Assembly: GCA_024233595.1 (NCBI GenBank)
Contig: JACKPK010000001.1
Coordinates: forward strand, 60,747 to 124,746
Direction: 5' to 3'
Origin: Deltaproteobacteria bacterium
GTDB taxonomy: Bacteria > UBA10199 > JADGCS01
Length of the DNA: 64,000 bases
The notes below the pieces were generated by a model that searched no databases, was not told the DNA's origin, and saw only the letters and a list, made by a program, of their open reading frames with translations. This document shows, in pieces, positions 31,771 to 64,000 of the stretch (positions are counted from its first letter, which is position 1; the number at the start of each line of letters is the position of its first letter). The position numbers and the translations under genes are program-made.

Positions 31771-33276
31771 TTAGGCCTCGCCGCCACTTTCTTTTCGAAG
31801 GATCGGGAACAAGATCACATCGCGAATAGACGCCGCGTCAGTGAGCAGCATGACCAAACGATCAATGCCAATGCCCTCGCCCGCTGCGGGAGGCATGCCG
31901 AATTCCAACGCTTTGACGTAATCGTGATCCATGAACATGGCCTCGTCATCGCCGCCTTCGCGTTCTTCCACTTGCGAACGAAAACGCTCGGCCTGATCAA
32001 CAGGATCGTTCAATTCAGAAAACGCGTTGGCGATTTCTCGACCCGCAATGAAGAGCTCGAAGCGATCGGTGATGTCACCGTTGTCATCGTTTTTACGACT
32101 CAAAGGCGAAACCGAGGTTGGGTAATGCGTGATGAATGTTGGGGAGATGAGTTTGTTTTCGATCAGCTCCTCAAACAAAGTGAGCTGAACAATACCCAGA
32201 TCAACAGAATCGGCATTTTTGATTTTAATGCGGTTTTGTTCACAACAGGCCAAAAGTTTTTGACGATCTTGAACATCGCTTTCTGACAAATCCAAATGCT
32301 TTTGCAAGGCTTCTAGTAAGGTGTAGCGCGCAAAAGGTTTGGCAAAGCTCAAATCTTTGCCCTGGTAAGAAACCACTTCGGATCCACAAACTTCCACCGC
32401 AAGTTTATTCAGCATGTCTTCGGTGAGTTCAATGAGATCTTCGTAATTGGCATACGCCATGTAAAATTCCAACATGGTGAACTCTGGGTTGTGTTGCGTG
32501 CTGATGCCTTCGTTACGAAAGTTACGGTTGATTTCGAACACACGTTCAATGCCACCCACAACCAAACGTTTCAGGTAAAGTTCGGGAGCAATTCGCAAAA
32601 ACAATTCCATATCGAGTGTGTTGTGATGAGTCACAAAGGGACGCGCCTTGGCACCACCAGGAATCGGGTGCATCATGGGCGTTTCGACTTCTAAAAACTC
32701 GCGCTCTTCTAAATAGCGGCGAATAAAAGACACAATGCGTGAGCGCTTTTCGAACACATCTTTGACTTCGGGGTTGGCAATGAGATCGACATAACGACGA
32801 CGGTAGCGCGCTTCTACGTCGGTCAGGCCATGCCATTTTTCGGGCAATTGCTCTATGGCTTTGGTGACCATGCCCAAAGAGTCCGCTTGAATGGTGAGCT
32901 CATCTGTTTTTGTGCGGAACAAAGTGCCCTTCACGCAAACCAAATCGCCCACTTCTAAATTTTTAAGAACGACATCGCCGTCTTCACCCATTTTGCCTTT
33001 TTGATAATACGCTTGCAAAAGACCAGAGCGATCGCGAATGCGCAAAAAGCCCGCTTTACCAAAAGAACGCACCGCAATCACACGTCCCGCCAAATCAACA
33101 GTGACAGGATTGGCTTCTAACTCTTCTTTTTTGAGACCATCGTATTTTGCCAAAATGTCTTTGGCAAGGTTTTCGGCCTTGAGCTTGTTGCCATAGGGAT
33201 TAATACCGGCTTCGCGCAGACGATCGGCTTTTTCGAGACGTTGTTGTCGGTAGGGGTTTTCTTTTTGCTGACTCAT
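31771..33276 (-). CDS. lysS: Lysine--tRNA ligase (class II)
   Basis: Class II motifs 'FRNEGIS', 'TPMMHPIPGGA', 'GIGIDRLVMLLT', plus an N-terminal OB-fold anticodon-binding domain. Confidence 0.95.
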   Translation of the reverse strand: MSQQKENPYRQQRLEKADRLREAGINPYGNKLKAENLAKDILAKYDGLKKEELEANPVTVDLAGRVIAVRSFGKAGFLRIRDRSGLLQAYYQKGKMGEDGDVVLKNLEVGDLVCVKGTLFRTKTDELTIQADSLGMVTKAIEQLPEKWHGLTDVEARYRRRYVDLIANPEVKDVFEKRSRIVSFIRRYLEEREFLEVETPMMHPIPGGAKARPFVTHHNTLDMELFLRIAPELYLKRLVVGGIERVFEINRNFRNEGISTQHNPEFTMLEFYMAYANYEDLIELTEDMLNKLAVEVCGSEVVSYQGKDLSFAKPFARYTLLEALQKHLDLSESDVQDRQKLLACCEQNRIKIKNADSVDLGIVQLTLFEELIENKLISPTFITHYPTSVSPLSRKNDDNGDITDRFELFIAGREIANAFSELNDPVDQAERFRSQVEEREGGDDEAMFMDHDYVKALEFGMPPAAGEGIGIDRLVMLLTDAASIRDVILFPILRKESGGEA

Positions 33277-36531: not shown

Positions 36532-37323
36532 ATGAGAATCACTTCGCTTTTAATTGGGTTTGCACTCACTTTTTCTTTGATCACCGGCGTTCACGCGCAA
36601 GACAATCCGTATTTTGATGCGGTCAAACAACACCTGCAAACCAAGCTAAACACCCAAGATGTGCCTTTGAACGAAACCCAGCTGGTGACTGATTTTCCTT
36701 TTATCAGCTCGCATCAAATTGTGCGCGTCAGCGTGAACAACCTGGCCTTGGAGCACCCTAACCAAAGCGGCATTGGCAGCTACGGTTACTTTGCGATCAA
36801 AGACAACAACGTTTTGCCTTTGCATTCACAAAGTGATGGAGCCGAAACCCTTTTGCGTGACGATCAGGTGTTAGAAAAAGACAGCGTGGCCGCAACAGAC
36901 GTAGCGAACTTTTTGATCGAAACCAAAATCAGACGTCAAAAACAAAGTTACAAAATCATTCAAGGTCCTGCTGACATTCACGCCGCTTTAGCCGGCAAAG
37001 AAACAGCCCAAACCGAAACCACTGATGCTGCGCCAAATCCTGCTTTAACAGATCCTGCTAGTGCAAGCGATGAGGAGATCAAAGCACCTTATTATCAAGA
37101 TGGTGATATCTACAAAGATTTGATTTTTGTGACCCTTGCCGGCTGGGATTCTTCCTACACCGATGTGGTGCTTTACCAAGCCCGCTTTGAGAAAGCCACG
37201 GGTAAGCTCTTTGTGCGTCGTAAACGCTTGGGGGCTATAAAAGATTGGGCTCTTCCGGCTCTTCCACAAAATCCTGCTGATGCCACGCAAAGTAACCCGC
37301 CAGCCACAACGCCGCAACCATAG
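36532..37323 (+). CDS. Hypothetical secreted protein (263 aa) with Pro/Thr-rich C-terminal tail
   Basis: Signal peptide 'MRITSLLIGFALTFSLITGVHA'. I recognise no family. Confidence 0.45.
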   Translation: MRITSLLIGFALTFSLITGVHAQDNPYFDAVKQHLQTKLNTQDVPLNETQLVTDFPFISSHQIVRVSVNNLALEHPNQSGIGSYGYFAIKDNNVLPLHSQSDGAETLLRDDQVLEKDSVAATDVANFLIETKIRRQKQSYKIIQGPADIHAALAGKETAQTETTDAAPNPALTDPASASDEEIKAPYYQDGDIYKDLIFVTLAGWDSSYTDVVLYQARFEKATGKLFVRRKRLGAIKDWALPALPQNPADATQSNPPATTPQP

Positions 37324-37798
37324 TCACCACGCCAAAAATTTTCACCAGCGTCCCTATGATCACATCAAAATTCAAAAGCCCCAGGCTTTCAAAAATATAA
37401 TACCAATCGCCAGGCACGCCTGCCCGCATGTGTGGGAACAGAACAATTTTTTGCGCTCTGGCATCTGCCATGTAAGCACCCACACCAATGAAAATCTTGC
37501 CCGCCCACCAAATGAAACAAGATCCCGAAAAAAACGCCTGATTTTTAAAAAGTAAAAACGCAAAGCCCAAAGGAAAACCAACTTCCAAAACAGTGCCACC
37601 AATCAGAATCAAAAAACGCCCCATAAAAAGCGTGATGATCTGAAAAAACACATGCCCTGCTTCGTGCAAATGAAACGCCACCTTGTCCAAAATGCTTACT
37701 CGATAATCACCCGCATTGAATAAAATGACGATGGTTAAGAAAACCAAAAATAAAAACACCCCAATGCGTAATGGTTTTCGCCAATTTTGAAACGGCAT
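37235..37798 (-). CDS. Polytopic membrane protein with HExxH motif (putative intramembrane metalloprotease-like)
   Basis: 187 aa with about five TM helices and 'FHLHEAGHVFF'. It converges on and overlaps the previous gene by 89 nt. Confidence 0.4.
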   Translation of the reverse strand: MPFQNWRKPLRIGVFLFLVFLTIVILFNAGDYRVSILDKVAFHLHEAGHVFFQIITLFMGRFLILIGGTVLEVGFPLGFAFLLFKNQAFFSGSCFIWWAGKIFIGVGAYMADARAQKIVLFPHMRAGVPGDWYYIFESLGLLNFDVIIGTLVKIFGVVTMVAALWLAGYFAWHQQDFVEEPEEPNLL

Positions 37799-37830
37799 GA
37801 ATTTAGTTTAAGGGAGTTTAGGATGCGGGG

Positions 37831-39090
37831 CTAGGGAAAATATTTAAAATTCCCAGTGTAGCTACGATCGTAAAAAAGATGAATGCCATTCGTCATGGTC
37901 ACCAGCAACCAATCTTCACGCCCGTCTTGATCAAAATCCAAGCGATGAATCCCCACCACACCTTCTTTATCAAAACCCAACGCTTCTGCCACATTCTCAT
38001 AGCTTTCAATATTGCCAAAGCCATTCAAGACAGGGTGTTCAACAAGCAAAGAATCAGTTTCGTGGCAACCCGCTACAGCAATGACCTGAGGACCTTCTTC
38101 TACCAATTGTTGCTGTGCAAAAAGACAACTGGATCCATCGTTTGATAATTCAAACTTAGCTGCCTGGTCTTCATATTTGCCCTCATCATTTTTAACAAAA
38201 AGCTCATCGCTCGTGTCTTCGTACCCAACCAAAATAGACTGTGATCCATTAAGATCAAACACCATGGCACCAACCGAGGCATCAAAGCCTTTGCCCGCTA
38301 AACCAAGCTCTTCTTCAATAAACTCATAACGCCCATCTTTTTGACCAGCGAACACACGATTAGCACCAATGATATTGGACACAAAAACATCAGAAAAACC
38401 ATCGTCGTTAAAATCTGCAGAAACCAGCGCGTTGGCTTCACCAGCATCAAAAACATTCAAATCAGACGCCAAATTTTCACCAAACTCCCAATCTGTTGTT
38501 TGTTGAAAAACCTTCAAACCATTGGTGGTGCCCACAAAAAGGTCATCCTGGTTTAAAAGCAAGGTGCGAGCCAAACTCACATCAAGGGAAGTTTGATCAA
38601 ACAAAAGGCTTTCGCCACCGGTGTTTTGTAAAACGTCGACTGAATCTGCGCGAGCGCGAATTAAATCCTCATCACCATCGCCATCTAAATCCACTTTTAA
38701 AAGAGAACGACTATCTCCAAAAAGCTCTGTGCCACTTGTATCGTCTACTTTTGACCAGAGCCCCGATTGATTCAGTAAAATAAAATCATTTTGAGAACCC
38801 GGTGTCGCCACATACAAATCCTTATCACCATCGCCATTCATATCAAAAAGAACACTCGATCCAATGAACTCATCGACATCAAATTGATCGTGCTCAAATA
38901 CAATGCAAAGGGACTCGCCTTCCTCGGTTTCATAAACCAAGCCCGTTTCGCAAATTTCTTCTGTTTCGCCTGTGTCCACAAAACCAGTGTCATCGGGATT
39001 TTCTGTGTAACCAGGAAAATCATCCCTTGGTTTATCCAAAAATGAATCTTGTTTGCACGCTGCCAGTAGTAATCCTAATCCGATTGTCAT
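37831..39090 (-). CDS. FG-GAP/VCBS-repeat lipoprotein (beta-propeller-like)
   Basis: Lipobox 'LLLAAC'. Repeats include 'DMNGDGDKDLYV', 'DLDGDGDEDL', 'DFNDDGFSDVFV' and 'DFDQDGREDWLL'. Confidence 0.6.
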   Translation of the reverse strand: MTIGLGLLLAACKQDSFLDKPRDDFPGYTENPDDTGFVDTGETEEICETGLVYETEEGESLCIVFEHDQFDVDEFIGSSVLFDMNGDGDKDLYVATPGSQNDFILLNQSGLWSKVDDTSGTELFGDSRSLLKVDLDGDGDEDLIRARADSVDVLQNTGGESLLFDQTSLDVSLARTLLLNQDDLFVGTTNGLKVFQQTTDWEFGENLASDLNVFDAGEANALVSADFNDDGFSDVFVSNIIGANRVFAGQKDGRYEFIEEELGLAGKGFDASVGAMVFDLNGSQSILVGYEDTSDELFVKNDEGKYEDQAAKFELSNDGSSCLFAQQQLVEEGPQVIAVAGCHETDSLLVEHPVLNGFGNIESYENVAEALGFDKEGVVGIHRLDFDQDGREDWLLVTMTNGIHLFYDRSYTGNFKYFP

Positions 39091-39093
39091 GGC

Positions 39094-40158
39094 TTACCTC
39101 TCTTCCTTAAACAGAGAAAACACGATTCCTCCCTGCACAGAAACAACATCGTAGGCAGGGTCTCCTGCAAAACTATTTTGATAACTGCCTTCAACAGTGA
39201 ATCCCATGAATTCTAAACCACTAATTGGCAAAGTCAGAGTCGCATCTGCATCCACTTTAAAAACACCAGAAGTTGATTTTTGTGGAACATAACCCTCTCC
39301 AAAATTAATCTTATTTAAACCAACGCCAGCGCCAATATCGCTCCCCACTGAAAAATGCGGACCAAAATAACGCGCTCCTCCAATGGAGGCTGTGAACAAG
39401 TTTTGCTGAGACGCAAGTGTGGCTGCACTTCCCGAAAACCAAGACCATTCAGGCTCAACATAAATAGCCCAATCTTTTTTTAAGGAATTTTTTTGCTCCG
39501 GCTTGGCAGTGGGCATCAAGTAACGCAAGCTGCCCTTGCCTTGTAAATAATTCAAATCAGAACGAGCTTCTTGGGATTGGCTTTCGGCCAAAGAAGCCGC
39601 TCCCGCTCCCAAACGCAACATCAAACGCCTGTTATTTGCCGGGTAACGAACCTTACCGCCAATCACATCAACACGATCCTGAATGTTCTTTCCATAAGCT
39701 TCAAAAACACGGCAGTTGCCTTCACCTTCCAAAACCCCTTCCATACGCACAGATGGCGGCGTTGATTCTTCTCTCGGGTCTGTACAGGTATTCCAAACCA
39801 AACTCTTATAACGTCCGTACAATTCTAAAAAGCCTGCGACTTGTGCTGTTGTAACAAAAGAGCGGCGATCCAAATCTGACGCAATTTCTCTGTAAGAATC
39901 TTCTAGATACTCCTGAGTCAAATTCAGATTTTGGGCAGCTCCCTTTGCACTATGGCGATCAATGGGATTGTTCTGAGTCATGCCTTGATCAACAACGATC
40001 TGATCGATCTCTGCCATGGCATCAGATAAAAATTGATCCACGCTCGTGCTTTTATCGGAAGATTTTCCAAAACGAACTTCCTTTTCAAAAACCTCAATCT
40101 GATTTTGAATGTAACGATCAACTTCTGGGTACCTGATTTCAATACTATTAGAACTCAT
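39094..40158 (-). CDS. Hypothetical protein (354 aa), C-terminal half beta-rich/OMP-like
   Basis: Strong RBS 'AAGGAGG' 6 nt upstream of the ATG. The C-terminus has alternating hydrophobic beta-strand-like patterns ('GGIVFSLF'). The N-terminus shows no signal peptide. Confidence 0.45.
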   Translation of the reverse strand: MSSNSIEIRYPEVDRYIQNQIEVFEKEVRFGKSSDKSTSVDQFLSDAMAEIDQIVVDQGMTQNNPIDRHSAKGAAQNLNLTQEYLEDSYREIASDLDRRSFVTTAQVAGFLELYGRYKSLVWNTCTDPREESTPPSVRMEGVLEGEGNCRVFEAYGKNIQDRVDVIGGKVRYPANNRRLMLRLGAGAASLAESQSQEARSDLNYLQGKGSLRYLMPTAKPEQKNSLKKDWAIYVEPEWSWFSGSAATLASQQNLFTASIGGARYFGPHFSVGSDIGAGVGLNKINFGEGYVPQKSTSGVFKVDADATLTLPISGLEFMGFTVEGSYQNSFAGDPAYDVVSVQGGIVFSLFKEER

Positions 40159-40509
40159 TGGCGCCCTCCTTTTCTCTCAAATAAGCAATTCTTTCAGAAA
40201 TTTTTAATTCCAAAAAAATCTGTAAACTTTTCACTAGTTCCAACTTACCAGCATCTTGGCTTTGGACAATTCTCTCGATCTCACTTTGGTAGTGTTGTTT
40301 TAAAATCTCAAAAATAGCTTGGATTTTATCAGCGTTCTGCCAACCGGAAACAATCTTTTGAATCTCACGACCATTCAGATAATTCTCAAAAATATTTTTT
40401 AAATCTTCAAAATAAGGCCGAAACTCATTCCATTTTTCGTAGGAGATTTCACCAGTGGCGAAAGAAAAAAACTGATCCAGAAAAACAACGTCAATGAATT
40501 ATGCCCACT
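40159..40509 (-). pseudogene. 117-codon open frame with no ATG (gene remnant or non-canonical start), translationally coupled to the downstream gene
   Basis: Minus-strand translation runs '...FIDVVFLDQFFSFATGEISYEKWNEFRPYFEDLKNIFENYLNGREIQKIVSGWQNADKIQAIFEILKQHYQSEIERIVQSQDAGKLELVKSLQIFLELKISERIAYLREKEGANEF*' with no stop for 117 codons and no Met. Its stop overlaps the start of 39094..40158. It is absent from the ORF track because it lacks ATG. Confidence 0.3.
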
Positions 40510-40678
40510 CAGTGGTTTCCAGTGCCATTTGGGTTCATGCTCAGGTGCACAACAGCATCGATTTCCTAGAACGATCAAATTCATCCAAAAAGACAGTCCA
40601 TAGATCTTCTAACCAAGTTTCAAAATTTTCTTTTTGCTAAGGTGAGAAGATTGGCAGCAACTTCTAATTCATCAAAAG

Positions 40679-43600
40679 TTATTGCAATAATAGTAATTCA
40701 GGAAAATCAAATCTCTTTGATTCCATATCTTTTCCATAATCATTTTCTAAAATAACTTGCAGCTCTTCAACCAATTGCTTGCGCTTAAAATAGGATTCCG
40801 AAAACACCTGATCTAAAAGAGAGAGGGCTGTGCGTGATTCTCGCATCGCAATTTCTTTAGAAGCACCTGCCACCCGTGTTCTTGCTGCTTTAAGCGCAGT
40901 CGCACGATCATCTCCATAAGATTCCAACTCGTCGAGCAAATCACCAAATTTTTCAAAGTTATTCAGAACAAATTCAGTTCTGCTCAGTTGTTCATTTAAA
41001 AACTGTGCCACTTCCTCAGCAAGCTCAGAAGTCCATTCACGATTACGAATACTCGGAAATTTTGGCGAAAGCCCATGGTTTTCAAATGTACCTTGCATAC
41101 GCAAAGCCAAAGCACGAGTGATGTCTGAACCTGAAAAATAAACGCTGCTTTGTTCCTCTTGTTGATTTAGTGCTTTTAATGCATTTGCACTTAACCACTG
41201 CCAAAAAGAAGACCTTGGAAGATTTTCTTCAAATGAAGAATAGCGAAAAACTGTCGCGTGCGTGACATCGGCGTCATTGAATTTTTCTGATAAAAAGAGA
41301 AGATTGTGGGCCTCTCCCCTTTGGTTTCTTTGCGCCAAATTGACAAAAAAGGCATAAGAAATTTTTGAATCTAAGGCTTTAGCTCTTATAACAAATGAAT
41401 TCAGCTGAGAAAAATCAACACCTTTAAAAAAGCCAGATAGTTCATCACCAAACTTGGCAAGCTTCCAATCCTTTTCTTCGTCGTTTTCTTGTTCTAATTT
41501 AAGAGCATAGGCAAGGTAAGAGTAAGCTGCAAATTTCACATAAGCACCTGTCTCTGCATTTCTCCGCATGACATCAGCCGTTTTTGCAATATCTGCAAAA
41601 AGAGTTTCCAAGGCTTGGGCTTTTTTTAAGGGGCGCGATTGAGGAATTTCTAAAAGCTTTTTATGTAGTTTTAAAAGTTTACTCTCAGAAAGCTTAGATA
41701 AAAACTTTTCCAAACCAAAAGAGCCCAATAGATTTTTTGCCAAATCTGTTTTCTGATCTTGATTCATCTGATCAAGCTCTTCCAACATTTTTTGATTACG
41801 CCAATTTGCAAAAAAAGCGTCAAATTCCCCTTCTTCTTTTTCAGCACGCTCTTGATCTGCCAAGCGCACACCCAGGTAACCCACTAAAAAAAGCCGCTCC
41901 GCTATGGAAGATGACGAAATAAGACTCCAAAGCGGCTCCGACATAGGGATGCCCTGAACAAGATCACTGTTATTTAAGCTTTGTCGTGAATTCTGATGAA
42001 TTTGCTTTAATTTTTGAATCGGTGTTTTCTCGATGACTTTTAGAAAAACCTCTCGTTTGGCTGACCAATCAGATCCTAAAGTATAAGAGGATGCCACTTC
42101 TCCAATAAGCAAAGATGCCTCTGCTTCGCCAGCAAGAGCAATGCCCCAATCCCAAAAATTTAAATCGTAACCTGTAATTTGTTTTTCGATTCCATTGGTA
42201 AAATTAAGTGTGTCAATAATTTCAGCAAAATTTGAAGCGAATGTTTTTTCATCACCTGTAACCGAATTTGACGCTTTTTTATCTGAGGCCATATTTTGCA
42301 ATTGATCTAAATACTCTTTCTTTTGCTCAGCGCCCCAATTTTCAAAGCCTTCGGGCAAACTACTTTCTTGAGGATTTGTGTGAACCCTTTCTCTAAAAAA
42401 ACGAACATCTTTGTTCGGAGCAAAACTCCATTCCAAAGTTCTTAAAAATCGGTTTTTATCTGCAAAAGCGGCGCGCTTTAAAACAACCTGTGGCAAATAA
42501 TGTGACCTGGCAATGATCGCACGCATTTGATCTTGTATTTCTAGCGAGTTTTGCCCCTGTAAATCAGACTCTAAACTGGAAACCCCTTGATAACGAATGC
42601 CGGTGATCTCGCCTTGTTCGATTTGCGCCCAGTATTTTTTAGAAAACTCATGCTCATCGATTAAGGCGTTCAAGGCATACAAGGCCGCAGCAATAAGTTC
42701 TTTTGATTTTTCTAATGAGGGTCTTTTTTCTGCACCTGCAGTTTTCAATTGCTCTTGCAGCAGTTGATACCAATCAGAAAGAACCTGCCTAAATTTATTC
42801 ACAAACGACAAATCATTTAAATAGCTTTGCATGACACCAGTGCTAGTAAAAGCTTGGCCACCATAAACAAAGTACCTGACAAAACCTTGCTCGGGATCAC
42901 CAATAAACTTAAGAAACTTTTCTATGGCGTTTTGTTCAGAACCAAGCCCTGCCAGCAAGGAATTGAATTCCGATTCGCCAAGATACTGTTCTGCACGTGG
43001 TGCAAAGTCTTCAAAAAGAACATAACCTTTATCTGACAAACCATTTTTCTGGGGCCACCCATAATTGAGCTCTCTTCGAATCTTAGCAAGATCTTCTATT
43101 ACCACTTCGCTAAACTCATTAGACACACGTTTATCAAATGCAGCTTGTTTGGCTTCAAAGTAACTTAAAAGATAATAGGCGTATTCCAAACGCTGCGTGA
43201 CACGATTTGCTTTTTCTTTGGATAACTCCAAAGGTGCCTTGCGACTCATTTTAGGTAAAGACTCTTCCAGCAAGGTCTTTTCGCGATGGGCAGGAAATCT
43301 TTTTCCGTAGGCAGTGGCATCATTATAGACTCTGTAAAGCTCATCTGCATTGCTTTCAAAAGCCAGAAAAGAAGATAGTGCCTGCTCAGTTGCTGAATCA
43401 GTGCCTATTTCTTGAGTCAAAGCTTGCAAAGGCATCCAGCTTATTTTTTCGCGCGCATAAGAAACATCCCTGTCTTGCGATTCCATTTGTTGTTCCGAAA
43501 AACGCAAAGTATCCAATATACTTTCGATCTGAAAATCAATTCCATCAATGGCCCAAGAAAAATCAATTTCGCTCGCATGAGGATTGTCTCCAAATTGCTG

Positions 43601-60871: not shown

Positions 60872-60878
60872 AAAAACC

Positions 60879-62507
60879 TCAAAATCCTGATGGCACTATA
60901 AAAGCGTTGCTTGGTAAAGATGCGCCTGTGTTGCGTTTGATCACATCAGACAGTGTTGAATCATTTACTATCGCCAGCGCATCAGGGTTATCCGCAAAAA
61001 AAGCATCGTTCTGATACCAAAAGCGATCTGCGCTACGAAGCAAGCTAAACTGATGGGCTAAAATTGCTGCAAAGCTTGGTCCAACAACAGCCCCGGAGCG
61101 AGGACGTTCTGCCAATCCCCCTACCCACAAATCAATATCCATGACATCATCATAAGCGCTTAAAACCTGACGTGCGCGTGGATCAACTGACACCTGATCA
61201 ACAGAATCATAAACAGACAAACCATAAGCTTCCCGCACAGCATTCAAACTGGCTAAGCCATGATCGCGTCCCCGTTGCACATTAAAAGCAAAAAGATCCA
61301 AGCCTGTAAAAGGACCATGTTGAAACAACTGATTTGATAAAGCATCAACCACATGCAGGTTCAAAGCGCGCGCTTCACGACCATTGGCTCCGCGAAAATA
61401 TTCGTCTAGACCATGTTTAACGGCAATGTCTGGTCTAAAAAAGGCATCTTTTAAAGGAATAAGTTTAACATATTCAGAAACACTCAATAAATAAACATCA
61501 TCATGCACCATGGGGTGCCCCAAACGAAAAGCCGCCGTGCTGAACTCAGTATAAATGCCTGGCTGATTATACCTGTCATACCCCTTATAAGGACCAAGGC
61601 CATCACCACCCAATAACAAGGGAAGATACTCAGCGTAGGTGATTTTTTGAATGAGGGCTTCTACAATTTTACGAGCACAATGGTAGATCTCGTCTCCACT
61701 AAGTTGAGGATTGCTATCGCTGATCTGGTCACACAAGCGATTGTGCTCACGCACCCACAGACTGTGCATGGCGGTTAAGGCAATGTTTTCGTTCGCACGC
61801 ACATCACCAGCAATAAAAGAAGCTTCCATGTCTCTAACGCCAGGGCCTTCTACGTTAAAGAGCCAATTTGTATTATAGGGCAACCAGTCGCCATCGTTTT
61901 GTTTAGAAACCCTAAGCTTTCCTGAATTGCCACTTGCCCTTAAATCACGCGCTCGTTCGGGCGTAGAGCCATAAACGGCAGTGCCATCCAAAAAAGAAGA
62001 TAATTTATTAGTTTGCTCCCTAGGTTTGCCCTCTTTGCCTTCATTCACGTATTGAGATCGACGCAAAGCCAAAGGTCTTAAATTGTCGTCGCGACCAAAA
62101 TGAGGGTCTCCGTTTGGAATGGGGATTTGCATGAGCTCGGTATCATCACCACTCTGCTCTGGAGTGTGCACAAGGCAATGAGCAATAAACTGCCCCCACA
62201 AAGTGAATAGATCAGAAACCTGAGCAAAGTCTCTGCTATCTTTAAAGGCTGTTTGCGCAGCCAAACTCAAAGCACGTGCGCTAGGTCGATTTGCCCCAGC
62301 AGGAGCAGAAACACCATCGCTATAAGCTGCCGCAGCACGTCTTAATAAAGGTTGTTTTGCAGCGCCCCAAGGTAAAAACGATAAATTATTGCGTTGTCCG
62401 GAAAAGGAGCGAACGGCATCGCCAAATCGAAGGTTTTCAATCGTTAAAACAGGATTAAAAGGAACACTGGCAGGCTGAATTCTCATGATGTCGTCCTTTG
62501 TGACCAA
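60879..62507 (-). CDS. Animal-haem-peroxidase family paralogue with altered distal motif
   Basis: 'FSGQRNNLSFLPWGAAKQPLLRR', distal 'WGQFIAHCL' (Asp replaced by Ala, Cys follows the His), and 'RGRDHGL' retained. It lies 8 nt upstream of its paralogue. Confidence 0.8.
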   Translation of the reverse strand: MVTKDDIMRIQPASVPFNPVLTIENLRFGDAVRSFSGQRNNLSFLPWGAAKQPLLRRAAAAYSDGVSAPAGANRPSARALSLAAQTAFKDSRDFAQVSDLFTLWGQFIAHCLVHTPEQSGDDTELMQIPIPNGDPHFGRDDNLRPLALRRSQYVNEGKEGKPREQTNKLSSFLDGTAVYGSTPERARDLRASGNSGKLRVSKQNDGDWLPYNTNWLFNVEGPGVRDMEASFIAGDVRANENIALTAMHSLWVREHNRLCDQISDSNPQLSGDEIYHCARKIVEALIQKITYAEYLPLLLGGDGLGPYKGYDRYNQPGIYTEFSTAAFRLGHPMVHDDVYLLSVSEYVKLIPLKDAFFRPDIAVKHGLDEYFRGANGREARALNLHVVDALSNQLFQHGPFTGLDLFAFNVQRGRDHGLASLNAVREAYGLSVYDSVDQVSVDPRARQVLSAYDDVMDIDLWVGGLAERPRSGAVVGPSFAAILAHQFSLLRSADRFWYQNDAFFADNPDALAIVNDSTLSDVIKRNTGASLPSNAFIVPSGF

Positions 62508-62615: not shown

Positions 62616-62763
62616 GCAAAGAATGCTACCGCCTCAAGTGGCGGTGCCCTTTTTTCTGCTTTGTCGCGACGGAGCGTTAGCGAAGGCGGACCTCTGTTAC
62701 GATGAAGTCGAAAGCTATCGCAAAGAATGCTACCGCCTCAAGTGGCGGTGCCCTTTTTTCTGC
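62616..62763. repeat. Two identical 44-bp direct repeats, each containing a GC hairpin followed by a T-tract
   Basis: 'GCAAAGAATGCTACCGCCTCAAGTGGCGGTGCCCTTTTTTCTGC' occurs at 62616..62659 and 62720..62763. The hairpin is CCGCC-TCAAGT-GGCGG. An additional CTGCAGC-TTTT-GCTGCAG hairpin follows at 62759..62776. Confidence 0.6.
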
Positions 62764-62782: not shown

Positions 62783-62824
62783 TAAATAAAAAAAACCCGA
62801 TCTCTCTAAAAGAAAGATCGGGTT
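62783..62824 (-). terminator. Rho-independent terminator of the rRNA operon (bidirectional in appearance)
   Basis: Perfect 10-bp inverted repeat AACCCGATCT...AGATCGGGTT, flanked by an A-run on plus (a U-run on minus), lying directly 3' of the 5S rRNA. Confidence 0.6.
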
Positions 62825-62835
62825 CTTAAATAAAA

Positions 62836-62952
62836 CCTGGCAACGTCCTACTTTTCCACTAACTGCGTAGTAGTATCATCGGCCCTAGCAAGCTTAACTT
62901 CCGAGTTCGGTATGGGATCGGGTGTGTCCTTGCCGGCAAAGTCACCAGAAAG
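62836..62952 (-). rRNA. rrf: 5S ribosomal RNA
   Basis: The reverse complement contains 'CCCATACCGAACTCGGAAGTTAAGC' and a 3' end '...GTAGGACGTTGCCAGG', matching the conserved 5S helices. Boundaries are approximate. Confidence 0.75.

Positions 62953-63109: not shown

Positions 63110-64000
<891 letters not shown>

Follow-up and report, generated by a model that had tools for sequence, protein, structure and literature searches.

The central 19 kb (37.8-56.8 kb) of a long minus-strand gene block is a real unit, which consists of an Rhs "cocoon" toxin-immunity locus and a set of companion gene families. The block (37,235-62,507) is part of the 64,000-nucleotide stretch analyzed here (the window). 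The reading we favour, with reasonable but not high confidence, is that the core of the block is a polymorphic-toxin locus of the TcdB/TcaC class whose envelope companions export or present the cocoon, that no TcA takes part, and that the peroxidase, DUF2846 and HExxH genes of the block are unrelated. The features are listed in Table 1.

Table 1 Positions of the features discussed in the text (window coordinates)
Feature	Position	Strand	Description
Membrane protein, 187 aa	37235..37798	-	polytopic; HEAGH motif; last gene of the FG-GAP operon
FG-GAP beta-propeller lipoprotein, 419 aa	37831..39090	-	lipobox LLAAC; Pfam FG-GAP_3 E 1e-17
OmpA-like "X" protein, 354 aa	39094..40158	-	beta-rich C-terminal domain common to the family
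520-nt gap	40159..40678	-	in frame with the giant ORF; six stop codons
Giant protein, 1,497 aa	40679..45172	-	mostly alpha-helical; no signal peptide; very rare family
Right-handed beta-helix protein, 627 aa	45216..47099	-	secreted; C-terminal TSP3 repeats; Pfam Beta_helix E 4e-15, NosD
TSP3/Ig-like secreted protein, 415 aa	47096..48343	-	"choice-of-anchor D" type; Pfam TSP3_bac + HYDIN/ASH Ig-like; marker gene of the module
Putative cognate immunity protein, 309 aa	48346..49275	-	N-terminal membrane anchor; GC 0.305
Variable C-terminal toxin domain, 153 aa	49279..49737	-	HEH...NCQDFS motif; GC 0.355
Glycine-zipper-rich hydrophobic segment	49738..50190	-	after core end motif NNPLKYVDPTGH
Insert in Rhs protein, ~aa 1865-1960	50578..50865	-	two hydrophobic helices with a strongly basic linker between; helix 2 ends AxA|GDTG
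Rhs-BC polymorphic toxin, 2,393 aa	49276..56457	-	Sec signal, SpvB (TcB N-terminal), FG-GAP beta-propeller, RHS/YD shell, RHS core, variable C-terminus
Small acidic protein, 100 aa	56490..56792	-	non-canonical lipobox-like signal LNC|S; 32 nt upstream of the Rhs gene
26-nt palindrome, copy 1	57048..57073	.	~250 nt upstream of the small-lipoprotein/Rhs operon
Two-gene unit: DUF2846 secreted protein, 456 aa, and membrane protein, 168 aa	57160..59044	-	Pfam DUF2846 E 7e-10
26-nt palindrome, copy 2	59242..59267	.	overlaps a peroxidase stop codon; ~200 nt upstream of the DUF2846 gene
Tandem haem peroxidase paralogs, 536 and 542 aa	59261..62507	-	no signal peptide; Pfam An_peroxidase E 1e-136
Strong intrinsic terminator	62791..62827	-	17-bp stem + T-run; -23.4 kcal/mol, z = -7.2; closes the rRNA operon before the block

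When the Rhs protein was searched against Pfam, SpvB (E 2e-12) and RHS_repeat (E 4e-15) were detected and FG-GAP_3 was sub-threshold (23.5 vs 26.9 bits). The Rhs_assc_core model (TIGR03696) matched aa 2008-2089 with 88 bits, and PDB sequence matches included TcdB2-TccC3 (E 5e-13) and the TcdB1 N-terminus (E 1.9e-6). Judged by these matches, the protein belongs to a known class of polymorphic toxins, "TcdB/TcaC", and is a TcB-TcC fusion in type. Its family comprises 14 relatives with 35-45 % identity, and N-terminal signal peptides were read by eye in 14 of the 15 members. The insert was likewise present in 14 of 15 in a MAFFT alignment, with which a hydropathy scan agreed. The RHS core ends in the motif PLKYVDPTGH. 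The glycine-zipper segment behind it has no Pfam match; it can be recognized in 10 of the 15 C-terminal tails of the family, and phmmer detected it in six relatives.

Alignments of the Rhs family end at the core motif, beyond which the tips vary (Ntox44 and M23 by Pfam, HExxH by motif). The tip of the window protein is common only to this protein and P0003 among the family members. Its Pfam match to Peptidase_C97 was sub-threshold (E 0.002; 18.4 vs 29.2 bits), and it is possibly a PPPDE/LRAT-like papain fold. The tip would probably be a His/Cys papain-like enzyme. The AF2 model of the tip was weak (pLDDT 56), and a Foldseek search with this model found nothing. The 309-aa gene abuts the Rhs gene with zero bases between them. 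The sole homolog of its product (320 aa; E 1.8e-45) is encoded in locus L082, directly downstream of P0003, the only Rhs protein with a matching tip. Tip and downstream gene co-vary as a toxin-immunity pair, in which the 309-aa protein would provide immunity, and both have a lower GC (0.355 and 0.305) than the Rhs body (0.435).

The marker gene of the module encodes the TSP3/Ig protein, which scored below the NCBIfam choice_anch_D cut-off (36 vs 45 bits) and has only about 22 full-length orthologs among 5.8e9 protein clusters. Loci L083-L097 contain orthologs. When 13 non-redundant TSP3/Ig loci were compared, the window excluded, the TSP3/Ig, beta-helix/TSP3, OmpA-like and FG-GAP lipoprotein families were found to be co-directional and often accompanied by Rhs-BC. 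A beta-helix ortholog lies downstream of the TSP3/Ig gene on the same strand in 12 of the 12 comparison loci that are long enough. The OmpA-like family was present in 10 of the 13 loci, Rhs-BC in eight and the FG-GAP lipoprotein in seven, several of the loci being short contigs in which absences are uncertain. Locus L096 has all six families, including a homolog of the giant protein, and the order giant gene, ~350-aa protein gene, FG-GAP lipoprotein gene is common to the window, L096, L098 and L099.

Relatives of the 354-aa protein were collected with an iterative HMM search of a small database from 11 fetched loci (10 non-redundant). Among the 13 proteins at this position, four match Pfam OmpA (best E 9e-10) and one matches OMP_b-brl; the pairwise match between the window protein and its L086 counterpart is weak. 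The FG-GAP lipoprotein family occurs in L083, L084, L086, L088/L093, L090, L091 and L096, and lipoboxes are visible in five of its members. Directly upstream of Rhs-BC in L082, L083, L084, L088 and L091 are positional analogs of the small lipoprotein (91-139 aa, with signal peptides), four of which have a Cys-containing lipobox. No sequence similarity was detected between the window protein and these analogs, and it is conserved in position only.

Such a collection could also arise if an Rhs toxin-immunity pair sat among independent surface adhesins or matrix proteins that recur together by joint inheritance or transfer in one lineage. The domains concerned (TSP3, Ig-like, beta-helix and FG-GAP) are generic modules of adhesins or surface proteins, and the gene order is permuted among loci. 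In addition, every named locus is a "Deltaproteobacteria" MAG (the loci overall are metagenomic or MAG sequences of uncultured bacteria), and the TSP3/Ig and beta-helix genes occur in L085 and L097 with the Rhs gene absent from the stretch seen, which for L085 is a complete 12.7-kb contig without an Rhs-BC match. However, the adjacency persists among loci whose orthologs are only 32-48 % identical and whose GC ranges from 0.39 to 0.54, which speaks for selection to keep the genes linked and against recent common descent as the cause. Moreover, no member of the tiny TSP3/Ig family was found in a locus that lacks the beta-helix partner, and the module genes overlap or abut, which suggests co-translation. 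We therefore consider independent adhesins unlikely.

The giant protein matched only itself in a word-indexed search. A full HMMER scan recovered six distant homologs (1,623-2,056 aa), three of which align collinearly with it. The giant protein has no Pfam or PDB match, and AF2 predicted helices (pLDDT 57). The family is co-located with the module only in L096, where a 1,658-aa gene encodes one of these six homologs, and in L098 and L099. The 520-nt gap next to the giant gene may be the decayed 3' part of its ORF; it gave no match to a family HMM built without the window sequence.

A BC-type cocoon near a giant, mostly helical protein, whose family co-locates with the module in L096, would suit a true three-component Tc (ABC) toxin against eukaryotic cells, in which the 1,497-aa protein would be a strongly diverged form of the TcA translocator. 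The shells of TcA proteins are themselves largely helical. Nevertheless, no VRP1/TcA Pfam domains were found in the block ORFs or in the seven giant-family members (VRP1, TcA_TcB_BD and neuraminidase-like domains in 0 of 7), and TcA was found neither with the giant-family profile among PDB sequences nor by Foldseek with the weak giant model. The giant protein is about 1,000 aa shorter than a typical TcA, and its homolog was not seen at most module loci. The Rhs protein carries a Sec signal peptide, which to our knowledge canonical TcB does not have, and the candidate immunity gene together with the M23 tip in a relative points to bacterial targets. An ABC toxin is thus highly improbable.

The sequence-only reading had taken the whole block for an accessory island of 17 minus-strand genes. 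Minus-strand ORFs do run unbroken from 37,235 to 62,507, but we count 13 ORFs of at least 100 aa and one doubtful ORF of 83 aa. The NCBI locus tags of the 1,497-aa protein (H7A33_00465) and the Rhs protein (H7A33_00485) are 20 apart and, as the usual step is 5, there is space for exactly three called ORFs between them. Pfam supports An_peroxidase twice, SpvB with FG-GAP and RHS, Beta_helix/NosD with TSP3, TSP3 with Ig-like, FG-GAP, and DUF2846. The position beside the 3' end of an rRNA operon was confirmed: the 5S rRNA (62,835-62,949) and the 23S 3' end (63,112-64,000) are directly upstream of the block on the same strand. That most of the proteins are secreted or membrane-bound is true only in part: signal peptides, lipoboxes or hydrophobic membrane segments were recognized by eye in nine of the 13, whereas the two peroxidases, the 1,497-aa protein and the 354-aa protein show none.

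Housekeeping genes do fill the region before the block (1-37 kb; SerA-like, PurA, PyrF, HemB, RlmN, PcrA, GlmS, BamA, LolCE, LysRS and MscL), but not in contrast of strand. The minus strand also carries all 16 housekeeping genes at 14,144-34,794 as well as the rRNA operon, and the GC skew is negative over the whole window. The co-orientation of the block is therefore attributed to strand bias and, as it extends over 21 kb of core genes and over the rRNA operon, loses its value as an island sign. The tight spacing holds inside the sub-blocks (-4, 0, 2, 3, 7, 7, 32, 32 and 43 nt), but three large gaps (520, 367 and 216 nt) divide the block into four units or more. The best explanation is that it is a composite of four or more leading-strand transcription units that lie downstream of the rRNA operon.

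That the entire 25.3 kb is one horizontally acquired island beside the rRNA operon, acting as a single secreted-effector system, is improbable on this evidence. GC3 is indeed lower in the block than in the core (0.383 vs 0.480; Mann-Whitney p = 1e-4), the families are rare and patchy, the module has differing settings elsewhere (adjoined by housekeeping genes in L084 and by a T2SS cluster in L097), and a palindrome is common to two units. The low GC3 is due mainly to the toxin tip, the immunity gene (GC3 0.206) and the giant gene (GC3 0.322). However, the peroxidase genes are near the core in GC (0.457-0.475). No block ORF matched an integrase or transposase family in Pfam and NCBIfam scans. 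The flanks, which were to be checked for tRNA or repeat scars, have no tRNA (the sole one found in the window is tRNA-His at 22.8 kb) and no bracketing repeat pair was found in the window. With no att-like repeat, tRNA or identifiable integrase gene, and with the rRNA operon closed by a strong terminator, insertion at an rRNA hot-spot was not borne out. Across 185,579 species-representative genomes, LysRS finds its best match at 59 % identity, so that no genome is near enough for a presence/absence comparison of the block. Horizontal exchange of the module itself is compatible with its lower GC3, its rare and patchy families and its differing genomic settings.

We regard the outer genes of the block, namely the two peroxidase genes, those of the DUF2846 unit and that of the HExxH membrane protein, as neighbours unrelated to the module. 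The two peroxidases are 49 % identical (pairwise BLASTP). The peroxidases, the DUF2846 protein and the 168-aa membrane protein are parted from the module by large intergenic gaps and have no match at the related loci searched, a set without L098 and L099. The 187-aa membrane protein has no Pfam or NCBIfam match and no relative at any related locus searched. The palindrome occurs in only two copies in the window (0 expected from shuffling), and copy 1 forms a weak RNA hairpin (-8.9 kcal/mol). Its position upstream of both the Rhs and the DUF2846 operons hints that the DUF2846 unit has perhaps been excluded too readily. A joint effector or cell-surface system, suggested for all 25 kb, looks likely for 37,831 to ~56,800, where five of the families (FG-GAP lipoprotein, OmpA-like, giant, beta-helix/TSP3 and TSP3/Ig) recur together and co-directionally beside Rhs-BC elsewhere, and is not supported for the rest.

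In the TcdB/TcaC-class reading, the Sec-exported 2,393-aa protein would build a cocoon of SpvB, beta-propeller and RHS parts that closes at the RHS core, followed by the glycine-zipper membrane segment and then by the swappable 153-aa toxin domain. The 309-aa membrane-anchored protein would be the immunity protein and its anchor would most simply have it face the periplasm; the target in other bacteria would then lie in the envelope or the periplasm. The companions (small lipoprotein, TSP3/Ig, beta-helix/TSP3, OmpA-like, FG-GAP lipoprotein and giant proteins) would make up an assembly of the outer envelope whose role is to export, anchor or present the cocoon so that it can be delivered on contact. 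We infer that they are a putative TcA-independent envelope export or display apparatus with a physical or functional link to the cocoon. They could instead be co-inherited surface proteins, and it is awkward for an envelope role that the OmpA-like and giant proteins are without recognisable signal peptides.

Among known systems, the best PDB sequence matches of the Rhs protein are T6SS-delivered Rhs effectors (E 9e-18). With effectors such as P. protegens RhsA and Salmonella bongori Rhs it shares the RHS cocoon, the core autoproteolysis motif, the C-terminal toxin and an adjacent candidate immunity gene. It differs in that no PAAR, VgrG or pre-PAAR N-terminus is seen and export starts with a Sec signal; no T6SS genes were seen in the window or the related loci. 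Bacterial teneurin-like proteins (TLPs), proposed to be displayed on the surface, are likewise rare and patchy YD-shell toxins that depend on Sec; their C-terminal domains are polymorphic and immunity proteins are associated with them (Nat Commun 2026, PMC13018210). TLPs are defined by a superfold of FN-plug, NHL and YD-shell and by a TIP domain. The window protein has an N-terminus of SpvB and FG-GAP propeller, unlike their FN-plug/NHL, and its matches to TLPs in the PDB cover the RHS core alone (aa 1994-2091).

Tc (ABC) complexes, e.g. Photorhabdus TcdA1/TcdB2-TccC3, resemble the Rhs protein in the SpvB N-terminus, the propeller, the RHS shell with core motif and the hypervariable region. 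Natural B-C fusions of Tc toxins have been described (PMC7861908), and in B. pseudomallei, as in the window, BC is fused in a single gene. In contrast to these complexes, the window has no detected TcA-like gene, a lysis/T10SS cassette was not identified among its annotated ORFs, and its Rhs protein has a Sec signal peptide and a candidate immunity gene, the latter implying targets in bacteria rather than insects.

The closest likeness is to the TcdB/TcaC class, for which Table 1 of Zhang et al. 2012 (Biol Direct 7:18, PMC3482391) gives a layout of signal peptide, SpvB, integrin-like propeller and RHS and an occurrence in delta-proteobacteria among other groups. The passages of that survey consulted and the literature searched gave no description of an internal hydrophobic hairpin, of a glycine-zipper pre-toxin segment, or of recurring TSP3/Ig, beta-helix, OmpA-like, FG-GAP lipoprotein or giant neighbours of Rhs-BC. 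The window locus agrees with the class, as presented there, in its signal peptide, SpvB, FG-GAP propeller, RHS, variable toxin and downstream candidate immunity gene; "TcdB" is the sole signature neighbour listed in the survey, whereas the window locus has other companions.

Between positions 37,235 and 62,507 of the window (GC about 45 %), 13 minus-strand ORFs of at least 100 aa were found and ORF calling gave no credible plus-strand gene, so the 17 genes counted in the sequence-only reading are an overcount. The NCBI locus tags of the 1,497-aa gene (hereafter the giant) and the Rhs gene differ by 20; at the usual step of 5 this leaves room for exactly three intervening ORFs, as called here. 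The common strand had been taken as a sign of an island or of one shared system. However, 16 of 16 genes in the core segment at 14,144-34,794 (including RlmN, PcrA, GlmS, YicC, BamA, LolCE, LysRS and MscL) and the rRNA operon lie on the same strand, and GC skew is negative across the whole window. The co-orientation of the block is therefore ordinary leading-strand bias.

The block is also discontinuous. It is interrupted by gaps of 216, 367 and 520 nt and therefore falls into at least four units. Scans for promoter and terminator consensus sequences gave counts at or near the shuffled expectation and were thus left unused for operon definition. One convincing terminator (-23.4 kcal/mol, z = -7.2) closes the rRNA operon. 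A perfect 44-nt direct repeat was observed between this terminator and the first peroxidase gene; each copy contains a GC-rich hairpin and no further copy occurs within the window.

Features of the window discussed in the text (block ORFs numbered in transcription order)
Feature	Position	Strand	Unit
23S rRNA, 3' part	63,112-64,000	minus	
5S rRNA	62,835-62,949	minus	
Terminator of the rRNA operon	62,827-62,791		
44-nt direct repeat, two copies	62616-62659; 62720-62763		
ORFs 1 and 2, haem peroxidases, 542 and 536 aa	59261-62507	minus	1
26-nt palindrome, two copies	57048-57073; 59242-59267		
ORF 3, DUF2846 protein, 456 aa		minus	2
ORF 4, membrane protein, 168 aa		minus	2
ORF 5, small protein with lipobox-like signal, 100 aa		minus	3
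ORF 6, SpvB/FG-GAP/RHS protein (Rhs protein), 2,393 aa	49276-56457	minus	3
Insert of the Rhs protein, aa ~1865-1960	50578-50865		
Tip (variable C-terminal domain) of the Rhs protein	49279-49737	minus	
ORF 7, membrane-anchored protein, 309 aa	48346-49275	minus	3
ORF 8, TSP3/Ig-like protein, 415 aa	47096-48343	minus	3
ORF 9, beta-helix/TSP3 protein, 627 aa		minus	3
ORF 10, giant, no Pfam match, 1,497 aa	40679-45172	minus	3
520-nt gap after the giant gene	40159-40678		
ORF 11, no Pfam match, 354 aa		minus	4
ORF 12, FG-GAP lipoprotein, 419 aa		minus	4
ORF 13, membrane protein with HEAGH motif, 187 aa	37235-37798	minus	4
263-aa secreted-protein gene, convergent with ORF 13	36532-37323		
LysRS	31771-33276	minus	
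tRNA-His, sole tRNA of the window	22.8 kb		

Insertion at an rRNA hot-spot had been proposed for the block. A check of its flanks for tRNA or repeat scars revealed no tRNA at either side and no repeat pair bracketing the block in the window, and no integrase, transposase or recombinase family was among the Pfam and NCBIfam matches of the block ORFs. These scans give the proposal no support; neither strand co-orientation nor rRNA proximity is evidence for an island in this region. GC3 was 0.383 in the block versus 0.480 in the core (Mann-Whitney p = 1e-4), and codon-usage distance was alike in the two (p = 0.84). The deviation in composition is concentrated in three genes: the toxin tip (GC 0.355), the 309-aa gene (GC 0.305, GC3 0.206) and the giant (GC3 0.322). 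Accessory status of the block is plausible. The closest match of LysRS among 185,579 GTDB species-representative genomes was 59 % identical, and either the lineage of the host is deep and poorly sampled or the genome collection lacks its relatives. The top LysRS matches were spread over Desulfuromonadales, Nitrospira and Bdellovibrionia MAGs. An exact-sequence look-up of three window proteins returned only MscL, on a 1.3-kb Logan contig.

The Rhs protein begins with a signal peptide read from its sequence (MKLAQNNKLKLFILCFGLLLFPFQLFA, directly followed by QSE), which judged by eye is kept in 14 of 15 relatives. It matches Pfam SpvB at aa 67-264 (E 2e-12), Pfam RHS_repeat (E 4e-15) and, at aa 2008-2089, the NCBIfam RHS-associated core TIGR03696 (88 bits; cut-off 32.5). 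FG-GAP_3 scored 23.5 bits, under the Pfam cut-off of 26.9, and is on record for most close relatives. Matches to PDB sequences included TcdB2-TccC3 (E 5e-13), the N-terminus of TcdB1 (E 1.9e-6) and Rhs cores of T6SS effectors. The tight family consists of fourteen relatives (35-45 % identity). Their alignment holds up to the core motif NNPLKYVDPTGH (DPxGH) and diverges beyond it: most members carry a glycine-zipper-rich hydrophobic stretch (about 150-170 aa) after the motif, and the tips (about 110-150 aa) are unrelated between relatives, with Ntox44 and M23 (Pfam) and HExxH (motif) among them.

An insert was also observed just ahead of the YFYYHxDHLGSS core motif in 14 of 15 family members (including P0003-P0014 and P0016). 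It has two hydrophobic helices joined by a strongly basic linker, the second helix ending AxA before GD(T)G, and by this layout it resembles an internal signal-anchor or signal-peptidase site within the cocoon protein. In a few distant relatives, among them an RHS protein of Leptospira weilii (P0053), a rough hydropathy scan showed hydrophobic segments at the matching position. No description of such an internal hydrophobic hairpin was found in the literature searched.

The tip of the window protein is common only to one of the Rhs relatives (P0003), and the sole homolog of the 309-aa gene lies directly after P0003 in its locus, L082 (E 1.8e-45). There is zero gap between the Rhs gene and the 309-aa gene. 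The co-variation of tip and 309-aa gene, the low GC of both and the absent gap form a classic polymorphic toxin-immunity signature, and we have high confidence that the two encode a toxin and its putative immunity protein. HEH and NCQDFS motifs are invariant in both known tip sequences. The tip matched Peptidase_C97 (PPPDE) at a sub-threshold 18.4 bits (cut-off 29.2). Its AlphaFold2 (AF2) model is weak (pLDDT 56), with an order of secondary-structure elements compatible with a permuted papain-like fold, and Foldseek found no match for this model. A PPPDE/LRAT-type permuted papain-like activity of the tip is therefore only a lead. The membrane anchor of the 309-aa protein and the M23 peptidoglycan-hydrolase tip of a relative suggest that the toxin would act on the bacterial envelope.

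Several related loci contain two full-length Rhs-BC genes with differing tips (L083, 10001-24050; L084; L082), either in tandem or flanking the companion genes, an arrangement that resembles a toxin arsenal around a single companion set.

When the contigs of three Rhs relatives were looked up, TSP3, beta-helix and FG-GAP genes adjoined the Rhs gene, and tblastn identified them as orthologs of the window genes. An alignment joining the 415-aa protein to two orthologs served as query for a metagenome contig scan, which returned eight additional loci. The protein search found about 22 full-length members of the TSP3/Ig family among 5.8e9 clusters, and four more genomic contexts were fetched. The comparison set consisted of 13 non-redundant TSP3/Ig loci besides the window (L083-L092 and L095-L097; L093 and L094 were left out as duplicates of L088). 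Every one of the 12 loci of sufficient length has a co-directional beta-helix ortholog after its TSP3/Ig gene. Relatives of the 354-aa protein (iterative profile) occur in 10 of the 13 comparison loci, Rhs-BC genes in eight and FG-GAP lipoprotein relatives in seven. Six loci have a small lipoprotein gene (91-139 aa) immediately upstream of the Rhs gene, frequently overlapping the Rhs start codon; no sequence similarity among these small lipoproteins was detectable. Identity between orthologs is only 32-48 % and the loci span 0.39 to 0.54 in GC, so the linkage has outlasted considerable divergence. The companion families form a conserved neighbourhood of the Rhs-BC toxin, an assignment we make with high confidence.

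Proteins at the position of the 354-aa protein comprised 11 family members and those of L084, L098 and L099, the latter aligned by position only; an OmpA domain (Pfam, best E 9e-10) was found in 4 of 13 and an OMP_b-brl match in 1 of 13. These matches lend some support to the earlier guess that the 354-aa protein is OMP-like; the window protein itself has no Pfam match. Membership in CglD or gliding motility was considered and rejected, as the TSP3 repeats alone match (59 bits versus a cut-off of 400). NCBI places the start of the TSP3/Ig gene later (377 aa, H7A33_00475). This start deletes a signal peptide that is kept in the orthologs, and the 415-aa start looks correct. In locus L097 (5966-13454, GCA_016183175.1), the TSP3/Ig, beta-helix and OmpA-like genes directly adjoin a type II secretion cluster (GspD, E, F, G, J, K) that looks complete and lies on the opposite strand, an adjacency that suggests type II secretion as a possible outer-membrane route for Sec-exported cargo.

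The giant retrieved only itself in the word-indexed protein search, and the ORFan status drawn from that result was overturned by a full HMMER scan of 1.84e9 representatives, which gave six distant homologs (1,623-2,056 aa, 25-29 % identity; alignments collinear with three of the six). The genome-collection scan with the giant returned no relative. One homolog is a 1,658-aa gene of L096, where the order is giant, 384-aa gene, FG-GAP, TSP3/Ig, beta-helix, two ORFs (484 and 212 aa) and Rhs-BC. In L098 and L099 the giant homolog comes first, a protein of about 350 aa second and an FG-GAP lipoprotein third, as in the window. We also considered the giant as a divergent TcA, the component that the locus otherwise lacks. 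This is not supported: the giant family has no Pfam or PDB sequence match, TcA domains included, and Foldseek gave no significant fold match and no TcA, though with a weak, mostly helical AF2 model (pLDDT 57, pTM 0.32). No signal peptide was found in the family. Weak LRAT matches of the giant (E ~1) were judged to be chance because no Cys or His is conserved.

In the 520-nt gap after the giant gene, the reading frame of the giant continues as helical-looking sequence that contains six stops (TAA, TAG, TAG, TGA, TGA, TAA), and the last 116 codons of the gap are open and have no canonical start. A decayed 3' end of the giant gene or a faulty assembly may account for this; a decayed C-terminus found no independent backing from the family HMM.

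The remaining genes of the block differ from the companions. The two peroxidases are animal-type tandem paralogs (49 % identical) without signal peptides, located directly downstream of the rRNA operon. No counterpart of the peroxidases, the DUF2846 protein, the 168-aa protein or the 187-aa HEAGH protein was present in any related locus searched, and iterative searches detected no relatives of the 100-aa, 168-aa and 187-aa proteins. The view of the block as one system is thus supported in part, for the toxin and its recurring companion families; the peroxidases and the DUF2846, 168-aa and 187-aa proteins are treated as neighbours outside the module, with a caveat for the DUF2846 unit set by a palindrome that it has in common with the Rhs operon. 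This 26-nt palindrome (TGTCCAAAATTCTAGAATTTTGGACA-like) occurs in only two copies in the 64 kb, both in large intergenic gaps, one upstream of the Rhs operon and the other upstream of the DUF2846 operon. As its RNA hairpins are weak, it may be a shared operator of the two operons. The 187-aa protein is polytopic, its HEAGH motif is of the HExxH type and it has no family match. The 3' end of its gene runs 89 nt into the convergent 263-aa gene, and an error may thus lie in either call.

The locus encodes a BC-type cocoon toxin that carries a Sec signal and a swappable tip; the gene downstream co-varies with the tip, the neighbouring gene families are conserved, and the locus contains no TcA-like sequence. 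A cocoon toxin-immunity locus with envelope companions is the best overall explanation, which we hold to be reasonably probable. The cocoon would be exported by Sec. An outer-envelope assembly made up of the lipoproteins, the OmpA-like protein and two Ca-binding proteins, TSP3/Ig and beta-helix, may serve to export, anchor or present it. Upon contact, the glycine-zipper segment would help the tip across the target membrane, and the membrane-anchored 309-aa protein would shield the producer. The role of the companions in export or display is tentative and falls somewhat short of what we would call likely. We consider it rather unlikely, and put it forward as a conjecture, that the companions (small lipoprotein, TSP3/Ig, OmpA-like, beta-helix/TSP3 and FG-GAP lipoprotein, with the giant in some loci) serve Sec-exported BC cocoons of diderm bacteria as a hitherto undescribed envelope machine that works independently of TcA. 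In that case the cocoon would be anchored or processed at the membrane through the family-specific internal hairpin with its AxA site, and the companions would move it to, or hold it at, the cell surface for contact-dependent killing.

To our knowledge, it has yet to be explained how BC-type Rhs cocoons that have neither TcA nor a T6SS leave a diderm cell and arrive at a target. The small set of tightly linked envelope genes that travels with such toxins offers concrete candidates for cocoon export and delivery, and the TSP3/Ig gene can serve as a marker for more such loci in metagenomes. No description of the companion gene set was found in the literature searched.

Among the nearest known systems, T6SS Rhs effectors share with the window protein their Rhs cores, as seen in the matches to PDB sequences. 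Bacterial teneurin-like proteins (PMC13018210) have a superfold of FN-plug, NHL and YD-shell, whereas the window protein has no Pfam match to NHL or FN-plug and its matches to teneurin-like proteins in PDB are confined to the RHS core at aa 1994-2091; it is not a member of that group. For the Tc (ABC) complex, sequence matches to the cocoon of TcB-TcC (SpvB, propeller, RHS shell and aspartyl autoprotease core) are present, but Pfam matched no TcA domain (VRP1, TcA shell and TcB-binding domains) in the block ORFs or the giant family, and the profile search of PDB sequences returned no TcA. Release of the complex by phage-like lysis (T10SS) involves no Sec signal, whereas the window protein has a Sec signal peptide, and no holin, endolysin or spanin was matched in family scans of the block ORFs. 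The locus thus differs from the ABC complex in TcA and in release mode.

The locus agrees with the TcdB/TcaC class, for which Zhang et al. 2012 (PMC3482391, Table 1) list a signal peptide, SpvB, an integrin-like propeller and RHS. Four features were compared, drawn from that table entry and from what the same paper says of polymorphic toxins in general. The window protein has a signal peptide followed by SpvB; an RHS shell and core, with the propeller resting on a sub-threshold Pfam match and the precomputed domains of relatives; a variable C-terminal tip after the conserved core; and a co-varying downstream gene with a putative immunity role. By these four features its predicted layout is that of the TcdB/TcaC class as characterized in the table entry and general description, and natural B-C fusions have been noted (PMC7861908). 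The toxin gene itself is therefore of a known type, and the companion neighbourhood is the main new result.
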